From NCBI GenBank assembly GCA_964623395.1, contig CAZUSI010000003.1, positions 1-38,110 of the forward strand: DNA of 38,110 bases, written 5' to 3'. The number at the start of each line of letters is the position of its first letter. The first letter of the stretch is position 1. Positions 4,874 to 37,148 of this stretch are shown piece by piece. This DNA is from an uncultured bacterium. Its GTDB lineage: Bacteria; Hydrothermota; Hydrothermia; Hydrothermales; Hydrothermaceae. The translations under genes and the position numbers were made by a program. The notes under the pieces were generated by a model. It saw nothing but the letters and a program-made list of their open reading frames with translations, made no database searches and was not told where the DNA came from.

Positions 4874-4946
4874 GGGCCCGTAGCTCAATGGGTAGAGCAG
4901 CGGACTCATAATCCGTTGGTTGCAGGTTCGAGTCCTGCCGGGCCCA
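4874..4946 (+). tRNA. tRNA with CAT anticodon, elongator type (Met, or Ile2 if the C34 is lysidinylated)
   Basis: Hand-folded 73-nt cloverleaf: acceptor GGGCCCG/CGGGCCC fully paired, D stem GCTC/GAGC, anticodon stem GCGGA/TCCGT, loop CTCATAA, T arm GCAGG-TTCGAGT-CCTGC, discriminator A. No CCA encoded. Confidence 0.9.
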
Positions 4947-4950
4947 TCTT

Positions 4951-5322
4951 TTATTCTTCAAAAATTTTATTTATTTCTTTTTTTAACTCCTCAATAGAAA
5001 AGGGCTTTGGAAAAAATCTTTTCAAACCTTTTAGATTTTTAACTTTTTCTCTTAAATCGTAAGAATCATAGGCAGTAACTATTATGAATTTTATATCAGG
5101 ATATTCCATTTGTAAATTAGCAATTAATTCAAGACCTGATATATCTGGTAATCTTACATCTGTTACAAGAAGGTCATAAGGATTTTCTTTCCATTTCTGA
5201 ATAGCCTCTTTTCCTGTCCTTACACTTTCAACTTCATAGTCACTTCCAAGAATTTGACTTACAAAAAAAGCAAGGGGTGCTTCATCTTCTACAAATAAAA
5301 TTCTCTTTTTACTCCCTTTCAT
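4951..5322 (-). CDS. Stand-alone CheY-like response regulator receiver protein
   Basis: REC motifs ILFVEDE, phospho-acceptor context DLLVTDVRLPDISG, IVTAY, PKPF. ATG overlaps the upstream gene by 14 nt. Confidence 0.85.
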   Translation of the reverse strand: MKGSKKRILFVEDEAPLAFFVSQILGSDYEVESVRTGKEAIQKWKENPYDLLVTDVRLPDISGLELIANLQMEYPDIKFIIVTAYDSYDLREKVKNLKGLKRFFPKPFSIEELKKEINKIFEE

Positions 5323-6829
5323 GTTTTATCACCTCTATAAATTTATTAAGTATTTCTGGATCAAATTTTTTACCCGAATATTTTTTTAAAAATTCAATTG
5401 CTTCATCTTTTGTAAGTTTATTAGAATAAATTCTTTCATTTGTAATTGAATCATATACATCACATATTGATAGTATTCTTGCCCCAATAGGAATTTCTTC
5501 TCCTTTAAGTCCCTCAGGGTATCCTGTTCCATCATAATTTTCATGATGATGTTTAATAATAGGTATAGCATCTTTTAAAAATTTTAAAGGACTTAAAATT
5601 TCAATTCCTATTCTTATATGTTCCTTCATTTTTTCATACTCCTCTTCATCAAGTTCAAAAGGTTTTTCTAAAATATATTCCCTTACTCCTATTTTACCTA
5701 TGTCATGAAGTAAGGCAGCATATCTTAAAATTTTGAGCTCTTCATCGTTAAGATTAAGTTTTTTACCGAGAAGATGAACGAGTCTTGCAACTCTTGAAGA
5801 ATGCCCTTTTATACTTCTATCTTTTGCTTCCTGTGCTTTAACAAGGGAAAGAAGACTTTCAACATAGCTTTTTTCAACTTTTTCAAAAAGCATTGAATTA
5901 CAAAGAGCAATTGAAATTGTATTTAAATAAATATCAAAGATATCAATAATTTTTGAAAAAGAAAAATCTTCCTTCCTTGTTCCTATCATAAAAACACCAA
6001 AAGGTTCTCTATTTTTTGTTTTTAATAGACCAATGCATATTTCTTTTATTTCACCTTCCGGATATTCCACAATTTGTGGCTCTTTTTTTTCGTTCAATTC
6101 CCTGAAAAATGGGTGATAAAAATCAAATTTGAATTCAGGCTCAAAAAATTTCTCAAATCCAATGAAATGTTTAATATATAAAGTATCAGGATAATTTTCA
6201 TCTTTTAATAATATAGCTGCATCCTCAATTCCAAAAATTTCTTTTGCCCCTTTTAATATTCCTATAGAAAGTTTTTCAAAATCCAATTCTTCATTAAGGG
6301 AATCAGTTATTTTATGCAATTCGGAAAGAATTTTGAGTTTCTCCTCAAGTTCTTTATCTACTTCTTCTTTTGCCATTTCTAATTTCTTATAAGCAATTTT
6401 AAGTTCTTGATTTGCAATTTTAAGTTCTTCCAAAAGTTTTTTATTCTCCTTTAAAAGTTTTCTTTTAGTTAAAGCATTTTTAACTGCTATTTTTATCTGT
6501 TCCGCCTTAAAGGGTTTTAATATATAATCATATGCACCCATTTTTATTGCTTCAATAGAAGTGTCTAAGGATGCAAAAGCAGTCATCATTATAACCTGTA
6601 TATCTTCATCAAATATTTTTGCTGCTTTAAGAACTTCAATTCCAGAAATATCAGGCAATTTTATATCTTGAAGTATACAATCGGGATGAAAACCTTCAAT
6701 CATCTTTATTGCATCTTCTCCAGTATAAGCAGTTCTTATTTCATAATCAGGTGATTCTGTAGAAAGAAGCCTTGCAAGGAAAAGGGTTAAGGCTTCTTCA
6801 TCATCTACTATTAAAATTTTTTCCTTCAT
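5309..6829 (-). CDS. Response regulator with REC, coiled-coil/GAF-like middle region and HD-GYP domain (predicted c-di-GMP phosphodiesterase)
   Basis: REC motifs ILIVDDEE, ILQDIKLPDISG, LKPF. HD-GYP motifs GHSSRVA, LLHDIGKIGV, HHHENYDGTGYPEGL. ATGA overlap with the kinase gene. Confidence 0.85.
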   Translation of the reverse strand: MKEKILIVDDEEALTLFLARLLSTESPDYEIRTAYTGEDAIKMIEGFHPDCILQDIKLPDISGIEVLKAAKIFDEDIQVIMMTAFASLDTSIEAIKMGAYDYILKPFKAEQIKIAVKNALTKRKLLKENKKLLEELKIANQELKIAYKKLEMAKEEVDKELEEKLKILSELHKITDSLNEELDFEKLSIGILKGAKEIFGIEDAAILLKDENYPDTLYIKHFIGFEKFFEPEFKFDFYHPFFRELNEKKEPQIVEYPEGEIKEICIGLLKTKNREPFGVFMIGTRKEDFSFSKIIDIFDIYLNTISIALCNSMLFEKVEKSYVESLLSLVKAQEAKDRSIKGHSSRVARLVHLLGKKLNLNDEELKILRYAALLHDIGKIGVREYILEKPFELDEEEYEKMKEHIRIGIEILSPLKFLKDAIPIIKHHHENYDGTGYPEGLKGEEIPIGARILSICDVYDSITNERIYSNKLTKDEAIEFLKKYSGKKFDPEILNKFIEVIKHERE

Positions 6830-9800
6830 AAAGGCAGATAAATTCTAAAAATTGTTCCTTTTTCATATTCAGATTCTACTTCTATTTTTCCACCATGTTC
6901 CTCAACAATTTTATGCACAATCGCAAGTCCTAAACCTGAACCACCTTTTTTTGTTGAAAAGAATGGTTCAAATATGCTATGCAAATATTCTTCTTTTATA
7001 CCTTTACCATTATCCTTACACCATAAAATAGCATTATTCCCAAATCTTTTAACTCCAATTTCTATTTCACCTTCCTTTTCAATTGCTTCTATAGAATTTC
7101 TTAAAATATTTAAAATTACTTCTTTAAATTGATCAGGATCAAGGTAAAGTATTAGCTCTTCATCTTCAAAATTTTGTAAAATTTTTATCTCTTTTCCAAC
7201 TATCTCAGGAGTAATAAAAAGAATGCTCTCCTTTAATAAATTCACTATGTTTACAGGAATTTTTCTAACAGGTCTTCTACTTGCAAAAGATAAAAGATTT
7301 TTAATTAATCTATCCAATCTGTATATCTCTTTTAAAATCATATCTATATAAATTTTAATGTTTTCATCCTTTGGAAGTTTTTCACTTATGAATTCTATAC
7401 CTGTAGAAATACTTGCTAACGGATTTTTAATCTCGTGAGCCATATAGGCAGCAATTTTTCCCATAGCAGACAATCTTTCTGTCCTTCTAAGCTGTTCTTC
7501 AAGTTTTGCAACTTCCCTAATATCTTCAACAATTAATATTATTCCATTTATTACATCACCTGGACCGTATATAAAACTACTTGTTATAGCAAGTGGAACT
7601 GCCTCACCTTTTATATCAGTTATAAATTTTTCCCTAAAAAGTGGAGTTCTATTTACAAATGAATTCTCTATTTTACAAAATCCACCTTTTGGATGAGAAC
7701 AAATAAAATCACAAATTTTTTTCCCTATAAGTTCTTTTGCTTCTCTCTTTAAGAGTAAATTAAAACCTTCGTTTACCCTTTTTATGTTTAAATCTGTATC
7801 AGTGACAACAATTCCAACTGGAATATTTCTTAAAACCATTTCACTAAATTTTACTTCTTCTTCTAAAAAAGATAACATTTCTTCTCTTTGTTCTTTATCA
7901 AAAATATTTTCAATAAAAATAGAGATTTGAGATGCTAAATTTTCAAGAAATGCTATATCTTCTTCAGAAAAGTCATAAAAACGAGGAGAGGAAATAACAA
8001 TAACACCAATTTTTTCTCTTTCAGTTTTAAGGGGAATTGCAACTTCAGATTTTATTAGGTCTGAAACTTTTACATAAAAGGGAGATTTTGTTACATCCGG
8101 AGAATAAATTGTCTCTCCATTTTTAAAAGCAATACCTGAAAGTCCTTCTTCGCCTATTTTTAATCTTATACTTAAATCCCTATATTTTTCATATCCTGAA
8201 GAAGAAATGAGTTTTAAATAATCGTCCTCCTTTAAAAGTATACCTACAAAAGAATATCCAAAATTTTCTCTTATTATATTGCAAACTTCATCAAGGTATT
8301 CCTTTAAAGATGAAATTTCTATTTCCTTCTCGGTTAATCTTTTTAATGCCTGAAGTAAAATTTTGTTTTTATTATATCTTTCAATTTTAAAAAGAAATTC
8401 AAAGTAAGATTTTAGAAATTCCTTTACAATATAAATTCTTTCAATATTTTTTGGATTAAGAATATATAGGGCCATTAACGGTTTTTCTTTAAGAATTAAA
8501 AAAGCATATTCTTTTGAAATTCTTTCCTCTTTAATTTGAATTTCCTCTAAGGAAAAAATCTCTTCTTCTTGAGGAAAATGATAAATTAAAGATAACCTAT
8601 CCCCTTTTTCCCCCATTATAAGAATTTTTTCGCAATTAAAGATTTTACAAAGAGCTTCACAAATATTTTTGTAAACAATTTTAATGTCAGTTTCTTGAAT
8701 AAAGGAATCTATTAAAATACTTGTTAATTCCTTATGAATAGAGAAAATTTCTCTTCTTAAATTAATACTTAAAATTTTTTCAACAAATTCTACTTCATAT
8801 TCAAAACTTTTTATTTCTTTTTCAGATAAGACACTACTTGTTACAAAAACAATAAAGCCATTCTTGATTTTAAAAGGAATTATATAAAAATAATAATTAT
8901 TTAAAGAAAAATGTGCATTAATTATTTTTTCAGGAGATCCCTTTAAAACTTTTTCAAACTCTTGTTTCCCTTTTCCTTTCCAGAAATTAAAATTTTCATA
9001 ATTTAAGCCAACACCTTCAAAATTATAAATTTCAATAAAAAGATTAAGAATATTTTCAACATAACCTTCTAATGAAATTTCTTCCTTTTCAGTTTCTGGA
9101 AGCAAATAACAAAAATTAATTTCCTTTTCTCTCCTTATTATATCTTGATACAAATAGAGATTTTTTATAATTAAAAGTAAAAAATTGCTAATTTTTTCTA
9201 AAAATCTTATATCTACATCTTTAAAAGCATCTTCCTTTTCAGAACCTATACCTATTGTTCCATAAACCATTTCCTTATCTTTTATTGGAATGATAAGCTC
9301 TGATTTTTCTGCTTGAGAAGACCTATAATATTCTTTAACTTTTTCAACATCCGGTGCATAAAAGACCACACCTGTTTCAATAACTTTACCTGTAATTCCT
9401 TCTCCTATCCTAAAAATATTCTTTTTAAATTCTTCCTCTTTAAAAGGTGGCCTTGTAACAAGAGCAACCCTTTTATAAACCTTAAGTTTTTCATCGTAAA
9501 GAAAAATTGTAACTTTACCTGCTTTTGTAATATTCAATAAAAATTGAGAAAATTTTTGTAAAATCAAATTTGTATCCTGAATTTGGGAAATTTCAGAAAG
9601 AAAATTAACTAAATTTTCATGAAAAAATATTTCACTTTTCTTTTCAATAAAAATAGCCTTTGTATTATTTAAGAGCTCTATAATATTAACATTATAAATA
9701 TCTTTAATTTCTTTTAATTTTTCAAATTCATCTCCACGATATAGAGAAATAAAAAATTTTTTTAATTCTTCTTTTTCATCTCCAAAGAAATAATTTATAA

Positions 9801-9912
9801 ACTTATCTCCCTTTTCATTAGCATAAATCAATTTACCTTCAGAATTAAAAACTATTATAGGATTTGGTATATTTTCAATCAAAAGTAAAGTAAAATTACT
9901 AAAACCCTTCAT
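6826..9912 (-). CDS. Cytoplasmic multi-domain sensor histidine kinase (N-terminal PAS-like, several GAF-like modules, PAS, HisKA, HATPase_c)
   Basis: H-box MAHEIKNPLASI. N/G boxes ILRNSIEAI, DNGKGI, FEPFFSTKKGGSGLGLAIV. PAS-like VLRNIPVGIVVTDTDLNIKRVNEGF. No obvious transmembrane segment. Confidence 0.85.
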   Translation of the reverse strand: MKGFSNFTLLLIENIPNPIIVFNSEGKLIYANEKGDKFINYFFGDEKEELKKFFISLYRGDEFEKLKEIKDIYNVNIIELLNNTKAIFIEKKSEIFFHENLVNFLSEISQIQDTNLILQKFSQFLLNITKAGKVTIFLYDEKLKVYKRVALVTRPPFKEEEFKKNIFRIGEGITGKVIETGVVFYAPDVEKVKEYYRSSQAEKSELIIPIKDKEMVYGTIGIGSEKEDAFKDVDIRFLEKISNFLLLIIKNLYLYQDIIRREKEINFCYLLPETEKEEISLEGYVENILNLFIEIYNFEGVGLNYENFNFWKGKGKQEFEKVLKGSPEKIINAHFSLNNYYFYIIPFKIKNGFIVFVTSSVLSEKEIKSFEYEVEFVEKILSINLRREIFSIHKELTSILIDSFIQETDIKIVYKNICEALCKIFNCEKILIMGEKGDRLSLIYHFPQEEEIFSLEEIQIKEERISKEYAFLILKEKPLMALYILNPKNIERIYIVKEFLKSYFEFLFKIERYNKNKILLQALKRLTEKEIEISSLKEYLDEVCNIIRENFGYSFVGILLKEDDYLKLISSSGYEKYRDLSIRLKIGEEGLSGIAFKNGETIYSPDVTKSPFYVKVSDLIKSEVAIPLKTEREKIGVIVISSPRFYDFSEEDIAFLENLASQISIFIENIFDKEQREEMLSFLEEEVKFSEMVLRNIPVGIVVTDTDLNIKRVNEGFNLLLKREAKELIGKKICDFICSHPKGGFCKIENSFVNRTPLFREKFITDIKGEAVPLAITSSFIYGPGDVINGIILIVEDIREVAKLEEQLRRTERLSAMGKIAAYMAHEIKNPLASISTGIEFISEKLPKDENIKIYIDMILKEIYRLDRLIKNLLSFASRRPVRKIPVNIVNLLKESILFITPEIVGKEIKILQNFEDEELILYLDPDQFKEVILNILRNSIEAIEKEGEIEIGVKRFGNNAILWCKDNGKGIKEEYLHSIFEPFFSTKKGGSGLGLAIVHKIVEEHGGKIEVESEYEKGTIFRIYLPL

Positions 9913-18872: not shown

Positions 18873-18946
18873 TGCGGGGTGGAGCAGCCTGGTAGCTCGT
18901 GGGGCTCATAACCCCAAGGTCGCGGGTTCAAATCCCGCCCCCGCTA
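18873..18946 (+). tRNA. Initiator tRNA-fMet (CAT)
   Basis: Hand-folded 74-nt cloverleaf, close to the E. coli initiator sequence as I recall it. It has a 1:72 mismatch (U:U) on top of the GCGGGG/CCCCGC acceptor, anticodon stem TGGGG/CCCCA giving G29-G31:C39-C41, loop CTCATAA, and T arm GCGGG-TTCAAAT-CCCGC. Confidence 0.92.
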
Positions 18947-23718: not shown

Positions 23719-23729
23719 TTTCTAAGAAA

Positions 23730-23802
23730 TGGGCCATGGAGGATTCGAACCTCCGACCCCCGGATTAAAAATCCGGTGCTCTGCCACCTGAGCTAATGGC
23801 CC
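23730..23802 (-). tRNA. tRNA-Lys (TTT)
   Basis: Hand-folded 73-nt cloverleaf on the minus strand: acceptor GGGCCAT/ATGGCCC, D stem GCTC/GAGC, anticodon stem CCGGA/TCCGG, loop TTTTTAA, T arm GGAGG-TTCGAAT-CCTCC, discriminator A. Confidence 0.92.
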
Positions 23803-23817
23803 AAAATAAAGTTTATT

Positions 23818-26301: not shown

Positions 26302-29716
<3,415 letters not shown>

Positions 29717-29730
<14 letters not shown>

Positions 29731-31930
29731 AAACCAAAACCTCGTACACAAGTCTTAAAGGATGATTTTTAAAATAAAATTCCCCATCCTCTTTAATTTC
29801 AATTTCTTCAGGCACCTGCAAAATAAGTCCCCTTTCCTTATCTATTTCATCAAGTAAATCAGTACCAATTACTCTTATCTTTATACCTTTTAAGGGAAAA
29901 TCAAAAAACCAGAATTCTTCAAGTGTATCCAAATAAAATTTAATTCTTTCAAAAATATCCTTTTCCTCACATTCAATATCCCAATCAGATGAATTTAATA
30001 AGAATGATAAAAAAGTTACTGAATCTATATATATTAAAGAATTAAGGGGATCCTTTCCCTGTGCAAGTAGATTTGCTATATTTATTGCAGGACCTGCTGC
30101 ATCTATATCACCAAAACTATTATAATTTATAAAAATATCTTTATCAGGTTTTCCACCTGCAATACCTATTCCTATCCTAAAAAGTGCTTTTAAAGGTGGA
30201 TAATTTTCAACAACATCTGGGAACCAATCTCTATATTTTGAATAATTATTTCTTATAAATTCAAGAGATTTCTTATACATATCCCTTGCACATAAAATTG
30301 CTTTTACAGGAACCTCCCCTGAAGGAAGAATTTCAATTTCCTTTTCAAAAAGTTTTGGAATCCTTAAATTTCTTCCTTTTGGAAGTGTTGCTTCTTCAAA
30401 GATATTTTCAAAAATTTCATTTGAATTTTTACAAAATAGGATTATACCGCCATCACCAAGATCCTTTAAGGGAAATCCTCCATATTTTTTAATTATTGAA
30501 AGCATCTCCTTATTAAATTCATTTTTTATATAAAATTCCTTCGCAGGGTCTTTTAATTTAAGTGACATAAATGTTGAACCTCTTATATCGTAAACAAGAA
30601 CACAAATAATTTCTTTAAATTTTTGATAAAGATTTTGTGGAATTTCAAAGGGCAATGAAAATTTTAAATTTTCTAAATCTTTTAAGATATAATACTCACC
30701 CTTTGGTAATTTCTGAAAAGCTATCCAATAAGAAATATCCTTTAAGTTTTCATCATTAACTTCATAAGGCACTATTTTTACAAATTTGGTTAAAAGAGAA
30801 ATAATAAGATTTGGTATAAGTAATTCTTCAAAGAAATAAGAAAGTTCTTTTTCAAATTCTACAAAATCCATTTCAAGTTTTATAAATCCTTTTTTTATAA
30901 AATCTTCAAGTAATTCATAATTCTTTTTTTCTTTTTTCTTATAAAGATAATATTCAAAAAATATACTTTCAAAATTTCTTTTAAATTTTATATCATCCTT
31001 TAAAATATTTTTTTTAACTTCTTCCCACTCTTTAATTAATATATAAAAAGAAGGTAAACCATAAGAAGGTTCTTTAAGGGCAATTTCTTTAAATTTTTCT
31101 TCATATTCTTTTTTAACTTTTTGAATAGCATTATAATCGCTTAAAATTATTCCAAAAGAACGAAGCCACTTTGCGCTTTTTTCTTTTATATAAGGCAAGA
31201 AAAGGTTTAATTTCTTCTTTGAAACTATCTCCTTTAATTCTTTTGAAAAATCTTCCAGTTCTATATTTAAACTTTCCCTTAAATCATCAATTAATTTTTT
31301 TTCCTGAATTTCTATATTTTTAAAAAATAAATCATTTTCTTTAGAAATTTTTATACTTTCGATATTTTTCTCAAATTTAATTCTATATTTTTCAGGAATT
31401 GTAAAACCGGTTAGATATTTTGAAATATTCTCTTTATCATTCATAATTATGTCTTTAAAATAAAAATCAACATAAAAAGTATGAAGTATCTTTAAGAGAT
31501 CTAAAAATTTTTCGGGAATTTTCTCTGGTAAATTTTCTGCATTTAGAAGGTAAGAAATAAATTCCTTTAAAGATTTATCTTTGAAAATTGAAAGAATTTT
31601 CTCTTTATACTTTTTTATATCCTCTTCTTTAAATTTTAAATTTTTCAATTTAATTAGAAATAAAAAATAAACAAATTTTTCTTCTTCACTGATTCTATCA
31701 CCTGAATTTATTAAATGTGTCAAAAAATCTTCAAAACTTTTTGATTCATAAGTTTCAATCACAAAAATCTTTGGTCTTTCATCACTTTCAAAAAAGAAAC
31801 TTTTATTCTTAATTTTTTCAGAAATATATTTTTTAAAGAAATTTAACTCTTCTTCATTCCATAAATTTTCAAAATTTTTTATCTTTAAAGAAAAGGGGAT
31901 TAAAGATTTTTCTAAGTAAGGGGTGAGCAA
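29717..31930 (-). CDS. Hypothetical 737-aa protein: unknown N-terminal ~440 aa plus a diverged class III nucleotidyl cyclase-like domain
   Basis: Uninterrupted 737-codon ORF tightly coupled to pilT (2-nt gap) and the GGDEF gene (14-nt overlap). Cyclase-like strings: VLVYDIRGSTFMS, LKDLGDGGIILF, FRIGIGIAGG, GDIDAAGPAINIAN. TTG start. Confidence 0.6.
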
Positions 31931-31932
31931 TT

Positions 31933-33009
31933 TTACTTCGTAATCGGTGTTTTTTCCCTTATCATCCTTTCAAGTTCATCAGGGTCTCTTGAAAAAGAAA
32001 GAGCAGTTTCAAGTGTTATTTTCCTTTGCATATATAATTTATAAAGGGATTGATTCATAGTTTGCATACCATATTTCTGCCCTGCCTGCATTAATGAATA
32101 GATCTGGTGAGTCTTATTGTCTCTTATCATTGCTCTAACAGCAGGAGTAGCAACAAGAACCTCACAGGCTAAAACTCTTCCTCCACCAATCTTTGGAAGA
32201 AGTGCCTGTGTAATAATTCCTAAAAGAACAAAGGAAAGCTGTGTTCTTACCTGTTGCTGTTGGTGAGGAGGAAAAACATCTATAATCCTGTTTATTGCTT
32301 CAACTGCTGAATTTGTATGAAGTGTAGCAAGGGTAAGATGGCCTGTTTCAGAAATTATAAGGGCTGATTCAATTGTTTCAAGATCCCTCATCTCACCTAT
32401 CATAACAACATCGGGATCCTGTCTCAAAGCATATTTTAAAGCCCTTGCAAAACTCTTTGTATCTGACTCAACTTGCCTTTGTGTTATATATGCCTTTTTA
32501 TTCGCAAATAGATATTCTATTGGATCCTCAATTGTTAAAATATGGCATCTTCTTTCATTGTTTATCTTTTCAATTATTGAAGCAAGTGTTGTAGATTTAC
32601 CATGACCTGTAGGACCTGTAACGAGGACAAGCCCTTTTGTTCTTGAAGCAAATTCTTCAACAACAGGAGGAAGACCAAGTTCTTCAAAATTCCTAATTTT
32701 ATAAGGAATTGTTCTTATTGCTATACTTATTGAGCCTCTCTGTTTATAAGCATTTGCCCTGAAACGAGAAAGACCTGTTATACCAAAAGAGAAATCAACC
32801 TCCCATTCCTCCTCAAGTTTTTTCTTCTGCTCATCTGTCATAACAGAATAAACAAGTTGCTGTGCTTCTTCTTTTGTAAGAACATCATAATTTGATGGAA
32901 CAAGCACACCATCTATTCTAAAAAGTGGAGGCGAACCTGCTGAAATATGAAGGTCAGTTGCCCCCCTATGAACCATCTCCTCTAATAACTGTTTCATTGT
33001 AACCGGCAT
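31933..33009 (-). CDS. pilT: Type IV pilus retraction ATPase PilT
   Basis: Walker A GPTGHGKSTT, Walker B DVVMIGEMRD, His box TGHLTLATLHTN, PilT signature AVRAMIRDNK. AGGAGG SD. 358 aa. Confidence 0.92.
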   Translation of the reverse strand: MPVTMKQLLEEMVHRGATDLHISAGSPPLFRIDGVLVPSNYDVLTKEEAQQLVYSVMTDEQKKKLEEEWEVDFSFGITGLSRFRANAYKQRGSISIAIRTIPYKIRNFEELGLPPVVEEFASRTKGLVLVTGPTGHGKSTTLASIIEKINNERRCHILTIEDPIEYLFANKKAYITQRQVESDTKSFARALKYALRQDPDVVMIGEMRDLETIESALIISETGHLTLATLHTNSAVEAINRIIDVFPPHQQQQVRTQLSFVLLGIITQALLPKIGGGRVLACEVLVATPAVRAMIRDNKTHQIYSLMQAGQKYGMQTMNQSLYKLYMQRKITLETALSFSRDPDELERMIREKTPITK

Positions 33010-33028: not shown

Positions 33029-34750
33029 TTAAAATTCTGTTGTTATCCTTAAAACCTCCTCAACAGTTGTTATACCTTTTTTAATTTTAATTATACCATC
33101 TTCTCTTAATGTATGCATACCTTCTTCTCTTGCCTTCTCTCTTATCTCATCTGAAGAAGCACCTCTTAAAATAAGTTCTCTTAAACTCGGTGTTATTGGC
33201 ATAACCTCAAATATGCCTATTCTTCCTTTATAACCTGTTCTTCCACATTCTTGGCATCCCCTTCCTTTATAAAATTTCATATCCTTTAGAAATTCATCAG
33301 AAACTCCAAGTTCCTTTATTATTTTTTCATCATAGGAGGTTTCTTCAATACAATTTTTACATATTTTTCTAACAAGTCTTTGGGCCTGAATCAAAATCAC
33401 ACCAGAAGCAATTAAATAAGGTTTTATTCCAAGGTCAACAAGTCTATCAATTGTTGTTGGTGCATCATTTGTGTGAATTGTTGAAAAAACTAAATGCCCT
33501 GTTAAAGCTGCTCTTATTGCAATCTCTGCTGTTTCATGGTCTCTTATCTCACCAACAAGTATTACATCAGGAGATTGTCTTAAAAATGCTCTTAATGCCT
33601 CTGCAAAATCAAGACCAGCTTCTCTATTTACCTGAACCTGATTTATTCCCTCAATATTATACTCAACAGGGTCCTCAACTGTAATTATCTGTTTATCAGG
33701 AGTATTTATTGTAGATAAAGCAGAATATAAAGTTGTTGTCTTACCACTACCTGTTGGTCCTGTAACAAGGATTATCCCATAAGGTGAACGGATTGCCTTT
33801 TCAAACTTTTTAAGGTCCTCTTCTTCAAAACCAAGTTTTGTTAAATCAAGTTGAAGTCCTGATTTATCAAGAATCCTCATAACAACCTTTTCCCCATAAA
33901 CAGTCGGAATAACTGAAACTCTAAAATCTATAATTCTATTATCAATTCTCATATTTATTCTTCCATCCTGTGGTTTCCTTCTTTCTGCAATATCCATCTC
34001 AGAAAGCAATTTTATTCTTGAAACAATACCTGCTTTCATATGATAAGGGAGATTCATTACCTCTCGTAATACCCCATCAATTCTATATCTTATTCTTAAT
34101 GTTCTTTCATAAGGCTCAATATGAATATCTGATGCTCTTAATTTTACCGCCTGAAATATTATATGATTAACAATTTTTGTAATAGTTGTATCTTCACCAA
34201 GTTTTTTAAGGTCCTCTATTTTTTCCTCTTCAATTTCACCTTCTATAAATTCAAAATCCTCAACCGCTACCTTCAATTCGTCTTTCTCCTCTTCTTTTTT
34301 AACCTCTTTAATTATTGTTTCCATTTGAGGATAAAATTTTCTCAAAGCCTCATTTAAAGCAGATTCAAGGGCAATAGCAGGAGATACTTCAAGTCCTGTA
34401 GAGAACCTAATTTCATCTATTGCTATAATATTTGTAGGGTCAACCATTGCAAGGAAAAGAACATTACCCTTTCTTGCAAGTGGTAAAACTTGATATCTAT
34501 AGGCAGTTTCAGGAGGAACAAGTGAAAGAACATCTTCAGGAATTGTTTTAAGTGTTGAAAGGTCAACAGGTGGAACACCGAGTTGTTTTGCCAAGAATTT
34601 AACAAGTGTTTTTTCATCAATCACACCCATTTCAACGAGGGTTGAGCCAAGCCTTTTACCAGTTTCCTTCTGCCTTTTTAAAGCTTCTTCAAGGTCCTTT
34701 TCCTTTATAAGTCCTGCCTTTAAAAGCATTTCACCAATTCTAAGTGCCAT
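33029..34750 (-). CDS. pilB: Type IV pilus assembly ATPase PilB/MshE-type (GspE family) with N-terminal MshEN domain, copy 1
   Basis: Walker A GPTGSGKTTT, DVILVGEIRD, TGHLVFSTIHTN, tetra-Cys CKNC...CQEC, N-terminal double RLGxxLLxxGLI...Q motif. 573 aa. Confidence 0.92.
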   Translation of the reverse strand: MALRIGEMLLKAGLIKEKDLEEALKRQKETGKRLGSTLVEMGVIDEKTLVKFLAKQLGVPPVDLSTLKTIPEDVLSLVPPETAYRYQVLPLARKGNVLFLAMVDPTNIIAIDEIRFSTGLEVSPAIALESALNEALRKFYPQMETIIKEVKKEEEKDELKVAVEDFEFIEGEIEEEKIEDLKKLGEDTTITKIVNHIIFQAVKLRASDIHIEPYERTLRIRYRIDGVLREVMNLPYHMKAGIVSRIKLLSEMDIAERRKPQDGRINMRIDNRIIDFRVSVIPTVYGEKVVMRILDKSGLQLDLTKLGFEEEDLKKFEKAIRSPYGIILVTGPTGSGKTTTLYSALSTINTPDKQIITVEDPVEYNIEGINQVQVNREAGLDFAEALRAFLRQSPDVILVGEIRDHETAEIAIRAALTGHLVFSTIHTNDAPTTIDRLVDLGIKPYLIASGVILIQAQRLVRKICKNCIEETSYDEKIIKELGVSDEFLKDMKFYKGRGCQECGRTGYKGRIGIFEVMPITPSLRELILRGASSDEIREKAREEGMHTLREDGIIKIKKGITTVEEVLRITTEF

Positions 34751-34751
34751 A

Positions 34752-36563
34752 TTACTCTATTTTTGTTTCTTTTATAACTTCTTCAACTGTTGTAATTCCT
34801 GCTTTTATTTTTCTTATCCCTGATTCCCTTAATGTTATCATACCTTCTTCTATTGCTGCCTTTTCAATCACATGTGTTGGAGCTTTTTCAAGGATTAATT
34901 CCCTTATCCTTTTTGTACAAGGTAAAACCTCAAAAAGAGCAATTCTTCCTTTATAACCTGTCCCATGGCATGCTTTACAACCTGTTCCCTTATAAAATGT
35001 CACACCCCTAAAAACTTCATCAGGATTTGGAGATAATTCATATAAAATTGATTTTTCTGGCTGATAAGGTGTTTTACATTTTTCACATATTTTTCTAACA
35101 AGTCTTTGAGAACTAACAACAAGAAGTGTTGAAGCAATTAAAAATGGTTCTATTTCCATATTTATAAGCCTTGTAATTGTTGCAGCAGCAGTATTTGTAT
35201 GAACAGTTGAAAGAACTAAGTGTCCTGTAAGTGAAGCCCTTATAGCAATCTCTGCAGTTTCAAAATCCCTTATTTCACCAACCATAATTATATCAGGGTC
35301 CTGTCTTAAAAATGCCCTTAATCCTGACGCAAAGGTCATCCCAACCTCTTCTTTTACTTGAACCTGATTTATTCCCATAAGTGTAAATTCAACAGGATCT
35401 TCAACTGTTGAAATATTAACTTCAACTGAATTAAGTTCTGTTAATGCAGCATAAAGTGTAGTTGTTTTACCACATCCTGTTGGTCCTGTAACAAGAATTA
35501 TACCATTTGGACTTCTTATTGCTTTTCTGAAAAATTCAAGTGACTCTGGTTCAAAACCAAGTAAATCAAGTTTTAAAGGAATTTGTGTCCTATCTAAAAC
35601 TCTTATCGCAACCTTTTCCCCAAAAACTGTTGGAATGGTTGCTACTCTTAAATCAACCATTCTATCCCCCATTCTTACCCTTATTCTTCCATCCTGTGGC
35701 TTCCTTTTCTCCTCCAATTTCATCTTAGCCATTATCTTAATTCTTGCAACCATTGGAGGAGCAAATTTTTTTGGTTTTCTGAAAATTTCATGTAAAACAC
35801 CATCTATCCTATATCTAACCCTAACATCATTTTCATAGGGTTCAATATGAATATCAGATGCATTTCTTGCAACAGCATCAGATATTATCATGTTGACAAG
35901 TTTAACAATTGGACCACTCTCAATTTCAGCAGTAATATCACTTATTTCTTCCTCTTTAACTTGTGGTCCTTCCTTAATGATTTCATAAGATTCTATTAAA
36001 GCCTTTATTTCTTCATCCTCTATTAAAGCAGAACTTAAACTACTTTCAGAACTTTTTGAAATATCACCTTTACCAATAACTTCAATTTCACCTTCCTCAT
36101 AAGTTTTTGCAAGTTCTCCAATAATATCTTCAATTCCATAATATTTTTTAATTGCTTCTCTTATATTATCCTCAATTGAAACAACAGGAATAATATCAAG
36201 TCCTGTTACAAACTTAACATCTTCTATTGCAAATTGGTCAAGGGGATTAACCATTGCAAGGATTAAATTTTTTCCCTTTCTTGCAACAGGAACAACAAGA
36301 TATCTTGCAACTAAATCCTTTGGAAGAAGTTTGATAATATCTTCACTTATATTTTCAAGTTCTTTTTTAGTAGCAACAGGAACATTAAATTGTTTTGAGA
36401 GAACCTTTAATATGTCCTTTTCCTTTACAAGACCAAGTTCAAGTAATACTGAACCCAATCTTTTACCATTTTTCTTTTGATATTCAAGTGCTTTTTGAAG
36501 GTCTTCTTCCTTTAAAAGACCTTCTTCAATAAGCATTTCCCCTAATCTTTTTATTTTTTTCAT
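34752..36563 (-). CDS. pilB: Type IV pilus assembly ATPase PilB/MshE-type (GspE family) with N-terminal MshEN domain, copy 2
   Basis: Walker A GPTGCGKTTT, DIIMVGEIRD, TGHLVLSTVHTN, tetra-Cys CEKC...CKAC, N-terminal double MshEN motif. 603 aa. Confidence 0.92.
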   Translation of the reverse strand: MKKIKRLGEMLIEEGLLKEEDLQKALEYQKKNGKRLGSVLLELGLVKEKDILKVLSKQFNVPVATKKELENISEDIIKLLPKDLVARYLVVPVARKGKNLILAMVNPLDQFAIEDVKFVTGLDIIPVVSIEDNIREAIKKYYGIEDIIGELAKTYEEGEIEVIGKGDISKSSESSLSSALIEDEEIKALIESYEIIKEGPQVKEEEISDITAEIESGPIVKLVNMIISDAVARNASDIHIEPYENDVRVRYRIDGVLHEIFRKPKKFAPPMVARIKIMAKMKLEEKRKPQDGRIRVRMGDRMVDLRVATIPTVFGEKVAIRVLDRTQIPLKLDLLGFEPESLEFFRKAIRSPNGIILVTGPTGCGKTTTLYAALTELNSVEVNISTVEDPVEFTLMGINQVQVKEEVGMTFASGLRAFLRQDPDIIMVGEIRDFETAEIAIRASLTGHLVLSTVHTNTAAATITRLINMEIEPFLIASTLLVVSSQRLVRKICEKCKTPYQPEKSILYELSPNPDEVFRGVTFYKGTGCKACHGTGYKGRIALFEVLPCTKRIRELILEKAPTHVIEKAAIEEGMITLRESGIRKIKAGITTVEEVIKETKIE

Positions 36564-36611: not shown

Positions 36612-37148
36612 TTAAAATTCATAATCAATTTTTCTTATTTTAAGTTTAATTTTTTCATCAAAATAGTTAAAATTTATCTCCTTAGGAAAATATTTTTCAA
36701 AATCCAAAAAATTTATACTCCCTTTTTCAAACAAAATTTTTTCTATTAAAAGTTCTTTATTAAAAACTATTATAAAATTCTCAATTTCAACTTCATAAAA
36801 TTTTTCACTCTCTTTTAAATTTAAAACCTTATATTTTTCAAAAAAAATTAAAGGATTAAAAAATAAATAAATTGCATCTTTTAAAAATTTATCATCAATA
36901 TCTTTTACAAAAAAAGGAGGAGAAAAAATTCTTATAAAAAAAGTATCTTTTTTAAAATTCAAAATAAAAAATCCCCTCATATAATTTGTTCCATAACTTT
37001 CAAAATCACCTTCTGCATAGATATATTTAATTTCCCTATTTTCATACTTATTCAAAATTATTTTTTTAAAATCATAAAAATTAATTTCCTTTTTATAAAC
37101 TCTTGCACATGAAAAAACTATTAAAAAAATTAAAAAAATTTTTCTCAT
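36612..37148 (-). CDS. Putative lipoprotein, function unknown
   Basis: Signal peptide with lipobox-like LIVFSC (MRKIFLIFLIVFSCARVY). 178 aa, beta-rich-looking. 4-nt overlap with pdxJ. Confidence 0.6.
   Translation of the reverse strand: MRKIFLIFLIVFSCARVYKKEINFYDFKKIILNKYENREIKYIYAEGDFESYGTNYMRGFFILNFKKDTFFIRIFSPPFFVKDIDDKFLKDAIYLFFNPLIFFEKYKVLNLKESEKFYEVEIENFIIVFNKELLIEKILFEKGSINFLDFEKYFPKEINFNYFDEKIKLKIRKIDYEF

Follow-up and report, generated by a model that had tools for sequence, protein, structure and literature searches.

What is the function of a large protein whose gene lies between pilus motor genes and a diguanylate cyclase gene in an uncultured bacterium? The gene, here called gene X, occupies positions 29717..31930 on the minus strand of a 38,110-nucleotide (nt) stretch of DNA, the window, from a member of the Hydrothermaceae (phylum Hydrothermota; GenBank assembly GCA_964623395.1, contig CAZUSI010000003.1). 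A first-pass annotation, made from the DNA letters alone, described the product as an orphan with a diverged class III nucleotidyl cyclase-like core, and suggested that it was a second-messenger enzyme or pseudo-cyclase regulating the pilus. Based on its open reading frame (ORF), translation and homologues, the 737-residue protein X has a helical region at its N-terminus, and its C-terminal part is a divergent class III cyclase homology domain (CHD). The domain, at residues 436-737 (29720..30625; this and all other segments of X are on the minus strand), is a genuine, strongly diverged CHD with extra segments, as found by AlphaFold2 (AF2) modelling, Foldseek, profile searches and hhalign.

Homology to class III cyclases became visible as the family was enlarged. 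A profile of the first 11 sequences ranked CyaB of Pseudomonas aeruginosa (3r5g) first among the sequences of the PDB, with an E-value of only 0.045. After 74 loci had been collected from species-representative genomes, 48 sequences were aligned over the domain, and the profile of this alignment matched CyaB at E 7.1e-6, with class III cyclases accounting for 10 of the 16 listed matches. Comparison by hhalign with six CyaB-like CHDs taken from plasmid records gave a probability of 90% and an E-value of 1.6e-6 over 212 columns. For homologue searches a domain-only alignment was also better than a full-length one of 47 sequences, which returned the same 10 proteins, probably through low-complexity saturation.

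Predicted structures pointed to the same superfamily. The AF2 model of full-length X was poor (predicted local distance difference test score, pLDDT, of 58), and its top 50 Foldseek matches in the PDB were all class III adenylyl or guanylyl cyclases. Residues 425-737, modelled from a 35-sequence alignment, gave a single globule with a pLDDT of 81.7 and a predicted template modelling score of 0.86. With this model the top 50 matches were again all class III cyclases (best E 2.6e-9), so the predicted fold is that of the cyclases and not an unrelated one. The template modelling score against CyaB (195 residues) was 0.77-0.78 when normalised to the target, and the alignments spanned about 300 of the 313 query columns, from which it follows that the CHD reaches the C-terminus of X. 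The last ~90 residues had earlier been said to match nothing. In the model they are a family-specific elaboration plus the closing β-hairpin of the cyclase fold. This part, at residues ~648-733 (29732..29989; AF2 and Foldseek), comprises a helix (659-668), strands (675-692) and the terminal hairpin FKNHPLRLVYEV (718-733), which closes the CHD sheet and carries the basic residues K721 and R726. The tail pattern D-K-G..K.LYEV is conserved in the family, and the hairpin may be equivalent to the canonical KG hairpin.

CyaB and the Spirulina enzyme CyaC (1wc0/1wc1) share the fold of X and were its best structure and profile matches. Between CyaB and X the DIRG(F/S)T turn hardly differs, and the metal-binding aspartates, the substrate lysine, the second substrate position and the asparagine line up. 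X differs from both enzymes in being invisible to the Pfam model of the superfamily, in its insertions, in its active-site arginines and in having a 430-residue helical region at the N-terminus where they have a known sensor domain. Another computationally recognised, diverged class III-like family, the DUF2652 proteins (Ramakrishnan et al. 2016, PMC4886424), was considered as a home for X and rejected. A dedicated Pfam model exists for DUF2652 and does not match X; these proteins occur in Actinobacteria, Bacteroidetes and Proteobacteria and form a separate family. A defence cyclase of the Pycsar or CBASS-like kind was likewise rejected. The PycC cyclase model of PADLOC matches one paralogue weakly (E 2e-5), which is attributed to common CHD ancestry, X itself has no PADLOC match, and the neighbours are housekeeping and signalling genes with no effector gene adjoining.

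The four motifs quoted in the first-pass annotation, ICVLVYDIRGSTFMS (residues 442-456), GGFPLKDLGDGGIILF (484-499), LFRIGIGIAGG (583-593) and FGDIDAAGPAINIANLL (606-622), fall on the columns that the family conserves most. Y447, D448, I449, R450, G451, S452, K489, G492-G495, G587, G589, G593, N604, D610 and G613 do not vary among 47-48 diverse members, and D448, R450, K489, D493, N604, D610 and G613 are invariant across 105 members, although overall identity is only about 25-35%. The invariant YDIRGSTFM (447-455; 30566..30592) contains β1 and the phosphate-binding turn with the first metal aspartate, D448, and aligns with SDIRGFTEL of CyaB. LKDLGDGG (488-495; 30446..30469), also invariant, holds the substrate lysine K489 and the second metal aspartate D493, and aligns with DKFVGDCV. 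The assignment of D448 and D493 as the metal-binding pair, which had been proposed before, is supported by both HMMER and hhalign alignments to CyaB. FRIGIGIAGG (584-593; 30152..30181) is the β4 strand, placed by the hhalign register IGIAGG = MGINTG. It had been remarked that β4 lies further from the GD strand than is usual in class III cyclases. This is correct; however, the distance from D493 to R585 is 92 residues and not about 80. The extra length comes from a family-specific insertion of ~30 residues at ~505-536 (30323..30418), a β-hairpin (511-525) plus loop in the AF2 model that is placed between β3/α2 and α3 and falls in a gap of the CyaB-like profile, and from added residues after α3, including a conserved YRDWF. 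Together with the ~70-residue elaboration before the last hairpin, these segments are absent from CyaB and CyaC.

Class III cyclases that use GTP are specified by a Glu/Cys-like pair of substrate residues. In X the aligned positions hold K489 and D610, a Lys/Asp pair of the ATP type. Such a pair marks ATP-using cyclases, while guanylyl cyclases have Glu at the Lys position (PMC4215837). K489 had already been recognised as the substrate lysine, and this was confirmed by hhalign; D610, which completes the pair as judged from hhalign and its invariance, had not been pointed out. It belongs to the segment D610...G613...N617...L621 (30068..30103), assigned by hhalign and the family table, in which D610 is the second substrate residue, N617 the transition-state Asn and L621 a leucine at the position of the transition-state Arg. 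The hhalign pairs between X and CyaB are D610 with Thr, G613 with Gly, N617 with the Asn of VNLASR and L621 with its Arg, so the arginine of the N...R pair is indeed missing, as had been observed. Asn and Arg are the usual transition-state pair, and Ma1120 of Mycobacterium avium is active with Ala at the Asn position (PMC4215837). The spacing D(+7)N(+11)R is the same in both proteins, D157/A164/R168 of Ma1120 corresponding to D610/N617/L621 of X (PMC4215837). Ma1120 keeps R168, however, an arginine that the X family never has.

Arginines are found at two other positions in the family. The canonical β4 Arg position is the invariant G587, and R585 lies two residues earlier on the same strand. 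Position 617 is Asn in the clade of the window; elsewhere it is R, A, S, D, G or H. No member has both R585 and R617: of the 105, 46 are Q585/R617, 58 R585/non-R617 and one K585/H617. R617 precedes position 621 by one helical turn and could reach the place of the missing arginine. This either-or pattern tracks two subfamilies, so few evolutionary events may lie behind it.

The boundaries of gene X were found to be as first described. It has 737 codons, starting with TTG at 31930, 2 nt after the pilT stop codon (TAA, 31935-31933), and the first in-frame ATG past the TTG is codon 163 (31444-31442). Homologues that are 56-91% identical match X from residue 1 (MLTxxLEK...) and several of them begin with Met, which makes the TTG start credible. 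The stop codon (TAG, 29719-29717) lies within the next gene, whose ATG is at 29730-29728, so that the two genes overlap by 14 nt. No ORF of at least 80 amino acids (aa) overlaps gene X on either strand, and its G+C content of 24% is low, yet inside the range of the AT-rich window. Residues 1-430 (30641..31930) are all-α and K/E-rich, nearly all helix in the full-length AF2 model at a pLDDT of about 50-85. They are poorly conserved, the family consensus being almost blank across them, and have no Pfam or NCBIfam match. A domain was sought for this region with the family profile against the PDB, which gave non-significant helical-bundle or coiled-coil matches (apolipoproteins, designed repeats), and none is assigned.

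X is not the orphan it was first taken for. At least 100 homologues were found in the 74 loci, from WOR-3, Stahlbacteria, TA06, Edwardsbacteria and Cloacimonadota. The WOR-3 relatives include Hydrothermus and Hydrothermales metagenome-assembled genomes (MAGs), and the closest named relatives are WOR-3 MAGs, with Hydrothermus pacificus at 57% identity. The family has no matching Pfam or NCBIfam model; Pfam matches to X were sub-threshold noise (BRCT_2 at E 0.02, RM8_Med14) and NCBIfam gave none. Several members are labelled 'class 3 adenylate cyclase' by JGI. No paper was found on the family, or on cyclase or cyclic di-GMP (c-di-GMP) signalling in WOR-3.

Three gene architectures were found in the family. 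The first, in Hydrothermales-like genomes, has the order PilB-PilB-PilT-X-GGDEF with a short GGDEF protein (~300 aa). It is kept in two divergent clades, among which X is 38-67% identical and between which about 38%. In the second, found in most WOR-3 and Stahlbacteria, X exists as two tandem paralogues, Xa and Xb. A REC-GAF-GGDEF gene comes next, the genes overlapping by 0-4 nt, and pilus genes are not nearby. Xa (~805-837 aa) is of the Q585/R617 type, and Xb (~754 aa) has R585 and Ala or Ser at 617. The third, in other lineages, consists of a single R585-type X of ~840 aa and then a GAF-GGDEF gene. Overall, a GGDEF gene lies directly 3' of the window-type (R585) gene in 54 of the 57 loci with enough downstream sequence, in WOR-3, Stahlbacteria, TA06 and Edwardsbacteria, with gaps of about -91 to +6 nt (+103 in one locus). 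The conserved partner of window-type X is therefore the diguanylate cyclase and not the pilus ATPases, as the GGDEF gene follows nearly throughout and the pil genes are confined to one clade. The first-pass annotation had drawn its hypothesis from the position between both; the GGDEF side holds for nearly all window-type loci and the pilus side in the Hydrothermales-like clade.

The tandem arrangement recalls the C1/C2 halves of mammalian adenylyl cyclases and the α/β subunits of soluble guanylyl cyclase, which are also paralogues with complementary residues. Asymmetry between C1 and C2 is established in heterodimeric class III cyclases, and by analogy Xa and Xb may pair asymmetrically, leaving one site of the heterodimer complete and the other degenerate. 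Unlike C1 and C2, which split these roles, Xa and Xb both keep the metal aspartates and the Lys/Asp pair. The lineage of the window also departs from the C1/C2 arrangement, since its single copy (R585, N617) would have to homodimerise. In one tandem locus (L074, 974-3389) Xa is split into ORFs of 685 and 193 aa, possibly by a frameshift, a pseudogene or an assembly error, and Xb and the GGDEF gene are intact.

Members that occur as single Q585-type genes have other neighbours. A GGDEF gene comes next in 0 of 11 such cases, valS being found instead. A valS or class I aminoacyl-tRNA synthetase gene lies directly downstream of Q585/R617 genes in loci L046 (7035-11857), L049 (6672-11956), L058 (5432-10729) and L003 (461-4999), sometimes overlapping. 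These members belong to Cloacimonadota and unclassified MAGs, and they constitute a second conserved adjacency. In a TA06 MAG (L039, 9288-10856) the gene after an R585-type X encodes, in place of a GGDEF protein, one of 522 aa with a phosphoribulokinase/uridine-kinase-family domain. The loci without a GGDEF gene were checked for another downstream effector with a cyclic nucleoside monophosphate (cNMP) receptor, and none was found (the kinase-family protein in L039, rho on the opposite strand in L047, valS after the Q585 singles). A single MAG, WOR-3 QZM1.Bin.7, holds two X-GGDEF modules (L005 and L033; CBFGJR010000085.1 and CBFGJR010000267.1) from both Hydrothermales-like clades, with X proteins of 741 and 694 aa; if this bin is not a mixture, the whole module may have been duplicated within one genome. 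In L002 (17142-18073, minus strand), ~7 kb from an X-GGDEF module, an 894-aa protein truncated by the end of the locus joins a canonical Pfam Guanylate_cyc domain to a STAND-type NTPase. Organisms with X therefore also hold ordinary class III cyclases.

The partner in the window is a 294-aa diguanylate cyclase (28846..29730, minus strand; Pfam GGDEF 3.9e-35, NCBIfam TIGR00254). Its RYGGDEF motif is intact, it lacks an RxxD I-site, and its N-terminal domain is ~125 aa long. A GGDEF domain is present in all 28 family partners examined, with G206, G207, D208 and E209 invariant. In 22 of the 28 a GAF domain directly precedes it, and many partners also have REC. A profile of the partner GAF domains matched PDE5 (4.7e-40) and 5W10 (5e-39; its single-domain score, 136.8 bits at E 6e-39, was the best) in the PDB, followed by CyaB2, PDE2 and PDE10, all of them cNMP-binding GAFs. 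GAFs that do not bind cNMPs, such as PtsP, Nlh1 and DevS, matched no better than 1e-16. 5W10 corresponds to the GAF domain of Lcd1 (PMC11800159), a diguanylate cyclase that is activated by the binding of cyclic AMP (cAMP) to this domain (PMC8846402).

The cNMP-type GAFs of the partners are the strongest argument about the function of the module, since they suggest that the cyclase-like proteins synthesise a cyclic nucleotide and that the product of the next gene senses it. Lcd1, from Leptospira interrogans, shares the GAF-GGDEF organisation of most family partners, and its logic of c-di-GMP synthesis activated by cAMP is what the operon of X suggests (PMC8846402). In the X family, unlike Lcd1, the cyclase-like gene or genes overlap or abut the GAF-GGDEF gene, many partners add REC, and the partner in the window is without a recognisable GAF. 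We know of no description of Lcd1 as encoded beside a dedicated cyclase.

Upstream of gene X, on the same strand, lie the genes of the pilus motors. The PilT-family retraction ATPase (31933..33009; TIGR01420 498 bits, T2SSE) is preceded by two PilB paralogues, both with a Pfam MshEN domain as an MshE-type c-di-GMP-binding N-terminus. Paralogue 2 (33029..34750, 573 aa) scores 727 bits with TIGR02538 and 73.5 bits with NF053729, and paralogue 1 (34752..36563, 603 aa) scores 669 and 68 bits, respectively. The cutoff of NF053729, a model of the MshE-related c-di-GMP-binding motif, is 38 bits. As both PilB proteins pass this model, a local target for the output of the GGDEF protein exists; MshEN is described as a high-affinity c-di-GMP receptor (PMC5013675). 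The tandem PilB duplication is kept in all Hydrothermales-like loci, and in L002 one copy is seemingly split into MshEN-only and T2SSE-only genes. The best promoter-like match of the region (11/12) is at 36601-36573, just upstream of pilB1, and is weak evidence in AT-rich DNA. It sits between pilB1 and a 178-aa ORF (36612-37148, minus strand) that lies between pdxJ and pilB1, has no Pfam match and is kept in the same position in L004 (175 aa). No terminator-like site was detected on the coding strand between pilB1 and the GGDEF gene, in scans that are weak in AT-rich DNA.

Taken together, we favour, at about an even chance, an explanation in which X is a divergent adenylyl cyclase feeding a cyclic-nucleotide-to-c-di-GMP relay, here beside c-di-GMP-responsive pilus motors. 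X is a soluble protein of two parts, the helical region (1-430) and the diverged CHD (436-737), and would dimerise as other class III cyclases do. It would make a cyclic nucleotide, most likely cAMP, possibly at low or partner-dependent activity. Its gene is translationally coupled to that of the diguanylate cyclase, and this coupling is what the family conserves. The product of the cyclase would then switch on c-di-GMP synthesis. A relay is the most likely form of the module because the partners in sister lineages, of (REC)-GAF-GGDEF type with a GAF closest to that of Lcd1, carry GAFs of the cyclic-nucleotide-binding kind. In the lineage of the window the c-di-GMP output could plausibly tune pilus extension and retraction through the MshE-type domains of PilB, which is the weakest step of the scheme.

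Several observations weigh against the relay. Pfam Guanylate_cyc (PF00211) matches neither X nor 10 homologues, even at E ≤ 10, so the check by class III family model that the first-pass annotation had proposed comes out negative, even though the homology is visible with the family profile and hhalign. When 1.84 billion representatives were searched exhaustively with a hidden Markov model, no more than 50 relatives came back, and no canonical cyclase; the family is therefore a small outlier, sharply set apart within the superfamily. Residues 576-650, the second half of the domain, had no match when used alone as a profile against PDB sequences, and the residue assignments there accordingly rest on hhalign and the secondary-structure register. 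Position 621 is L, F or I, rarely V or T, in the 105 members and never Arg, and the work of Tesmer et al. of 1997 and 1999 and later mutagenesis reportedly found that loss of the transition-state Arg strongly lowers the activity of canonical enzymes. In the N-terminus of the GGDEF protein of the window no GAF was detected by Pfam, by profile search against the PDB or by hhalign against the partner GAFs. A reduced GAF was considered for this region on account of a vaguely GAF-like MAFFT alignment, and with hhalign and the PDB profile negative it is not claimed. Pilus genes are not beside most family members, PilB-PilB-PilT being found only in the Hydrothermales-like clade, and the co-directional gene string of the window also holds the housekeeping genes pdxJ and ligA, so that gene X could lie next to the pil genes by coincidence.

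This last possibility is independent of the other readings. X would then serve the diguanylate cyclase or unrelated targets, and its place beside the pilus genes would reflect genome compaction. Outside the Hydrothermales-like loci, RuvX and YceG genes come before the module and genes for a CBS protein and a Na+/H+ exchanger after it, and the Q585-type singles precede valS, all of which fits an incidental neighbourhood. On the other hand, the order PilB-PilB-PilT-X-GGDEF has been kept in two clades despite the low identity of X between them, the gap after pilT is a mere 2 nt, and the c-di-GMP receptor motifs of both PilB proteins offer a target on the spot. Incidental adjacency is thus possible, but we are inclined to doubt it.

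It has also to be asked whether X is catalytic. As a pseudo-cyclase, its CHD would bind ATP and metal without cyclising, and X, as a scaffold or an NTP sensor, would control the adjacent diguanylate cyclase, and possibly the pilus ATPases, by contact. The permanent absence of Arg at 621 would be explained, as would the lack of conservation of Asn617 across the family, and with no detectable cNMP-type GAF in the GGDEF protein the locus offers no obvious receptor for a cyclic nucleotide. The gene overlap suggests stoichiometric co-production, which would fit a complex, and the large helical region could serve as an interaction platform. However, the metal aspartates, the phosphate-binding turn and the Lys/Asp pair have stayed invariant over deep divergence, which is unusual for a non-catalytic domain. 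Moreover, an arginine at 585 or 617 could stand in for the missing one, and the cNMP-type GAFs of sister lineages imply synthesis of a cyclic nucleotide by some part of the module. A pseudo-cyclase is considered unlikely.

A related proposal treats the family as a distinct solution within the cyclase fold, in which the canonical Arg was lost for good. Either a relocated arginine (R585 or R617, acting in trans in Xa/Xb) would have taken its place, or an ATP-sensing pseudo-cyclase would be complexed with the diguanylate cyclase, and in Hydrothermales the module would gate c-di-GMP to the MshEN domains of both PilB proteins. We regard this proposal as decidedly unlikely. Least probable, and very improbable in our judgement, is that X is an active cyclase whose product, to be sensed by the partner GAF-GGDEF protein or by a different receptor, is not cAMP but cGMP, a pyrimidine cNMP or some other nucleotide: the partner GAF profile scores equally with cGMP GAFs (PDE5, PDE2) and cAMP GAFs (Lcd1, CyaB2, PDE10), the bacterial cUMP synthase 7r65 is among the fold matches, a paralogue is weakly matched by PycC models, and the odd active site with no Arg and two insertions could alter the chemistry, but the invariant K489/D610 is an ATP signature at odds with the Glu of guanylyl cyclases (PMC4215837), and X has neither a PADLOC match nor a defence-island context or Pycsar effector nearby.

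Elsewhere in the window a second c-di-GMP-related cluster was found (4951-9912, minus strand). It encodes a 1028-aa GAF-PAS-HisKA-HATPase sensor kinase (6826-9912), a protein with REC and HD-GYP-type (HD_5) domains (5309-6829) and a stand-alone REC (4951-5322), and its host probably also has a two-component-controlled c-di-GMP phosphodiesterase. The window further contains tRNA genes at 4874-4946, 18873-18946 and 23729-23803, two for tRNA-Met (CAT) and one for tRNA-Lys (TTT), and no other Rfam families.

If the relay with X as adenylyl cyclase is correct, it would represent cross-talk between cAMP and c-di-GMP in the form of one co-translated module, with the cyclase-like gene or genes and the GAF-GGDEF gene side by side. 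WOR-3 and its relatives lack a cultured model, hardly any of their signalling proteins have been characterised, and the relay would give them a concrete, testable pathway, one that in Hydrothermales-like organisms would lead to type IV pilus motors with c-di-GMP receptor domains. Were the relocated-arginine or pseudo-cyclase proposal to hold instead, an operon of an uncultured phylum would encode a second-messenger converter dedicated to controlling the pilus. To the enzymology of cyclases the family offers a natural experiment in which the metal and base-recognition residues have been kept and the transition-state Arg is gone, and the tandem paralogues, with their arginines at alternative positions, could reveal to what extent the canonical six-residue site is needed. 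A model of the family, which neither Pfam nor NCBIfam contains, would improve the annotation of several candidate phyla.

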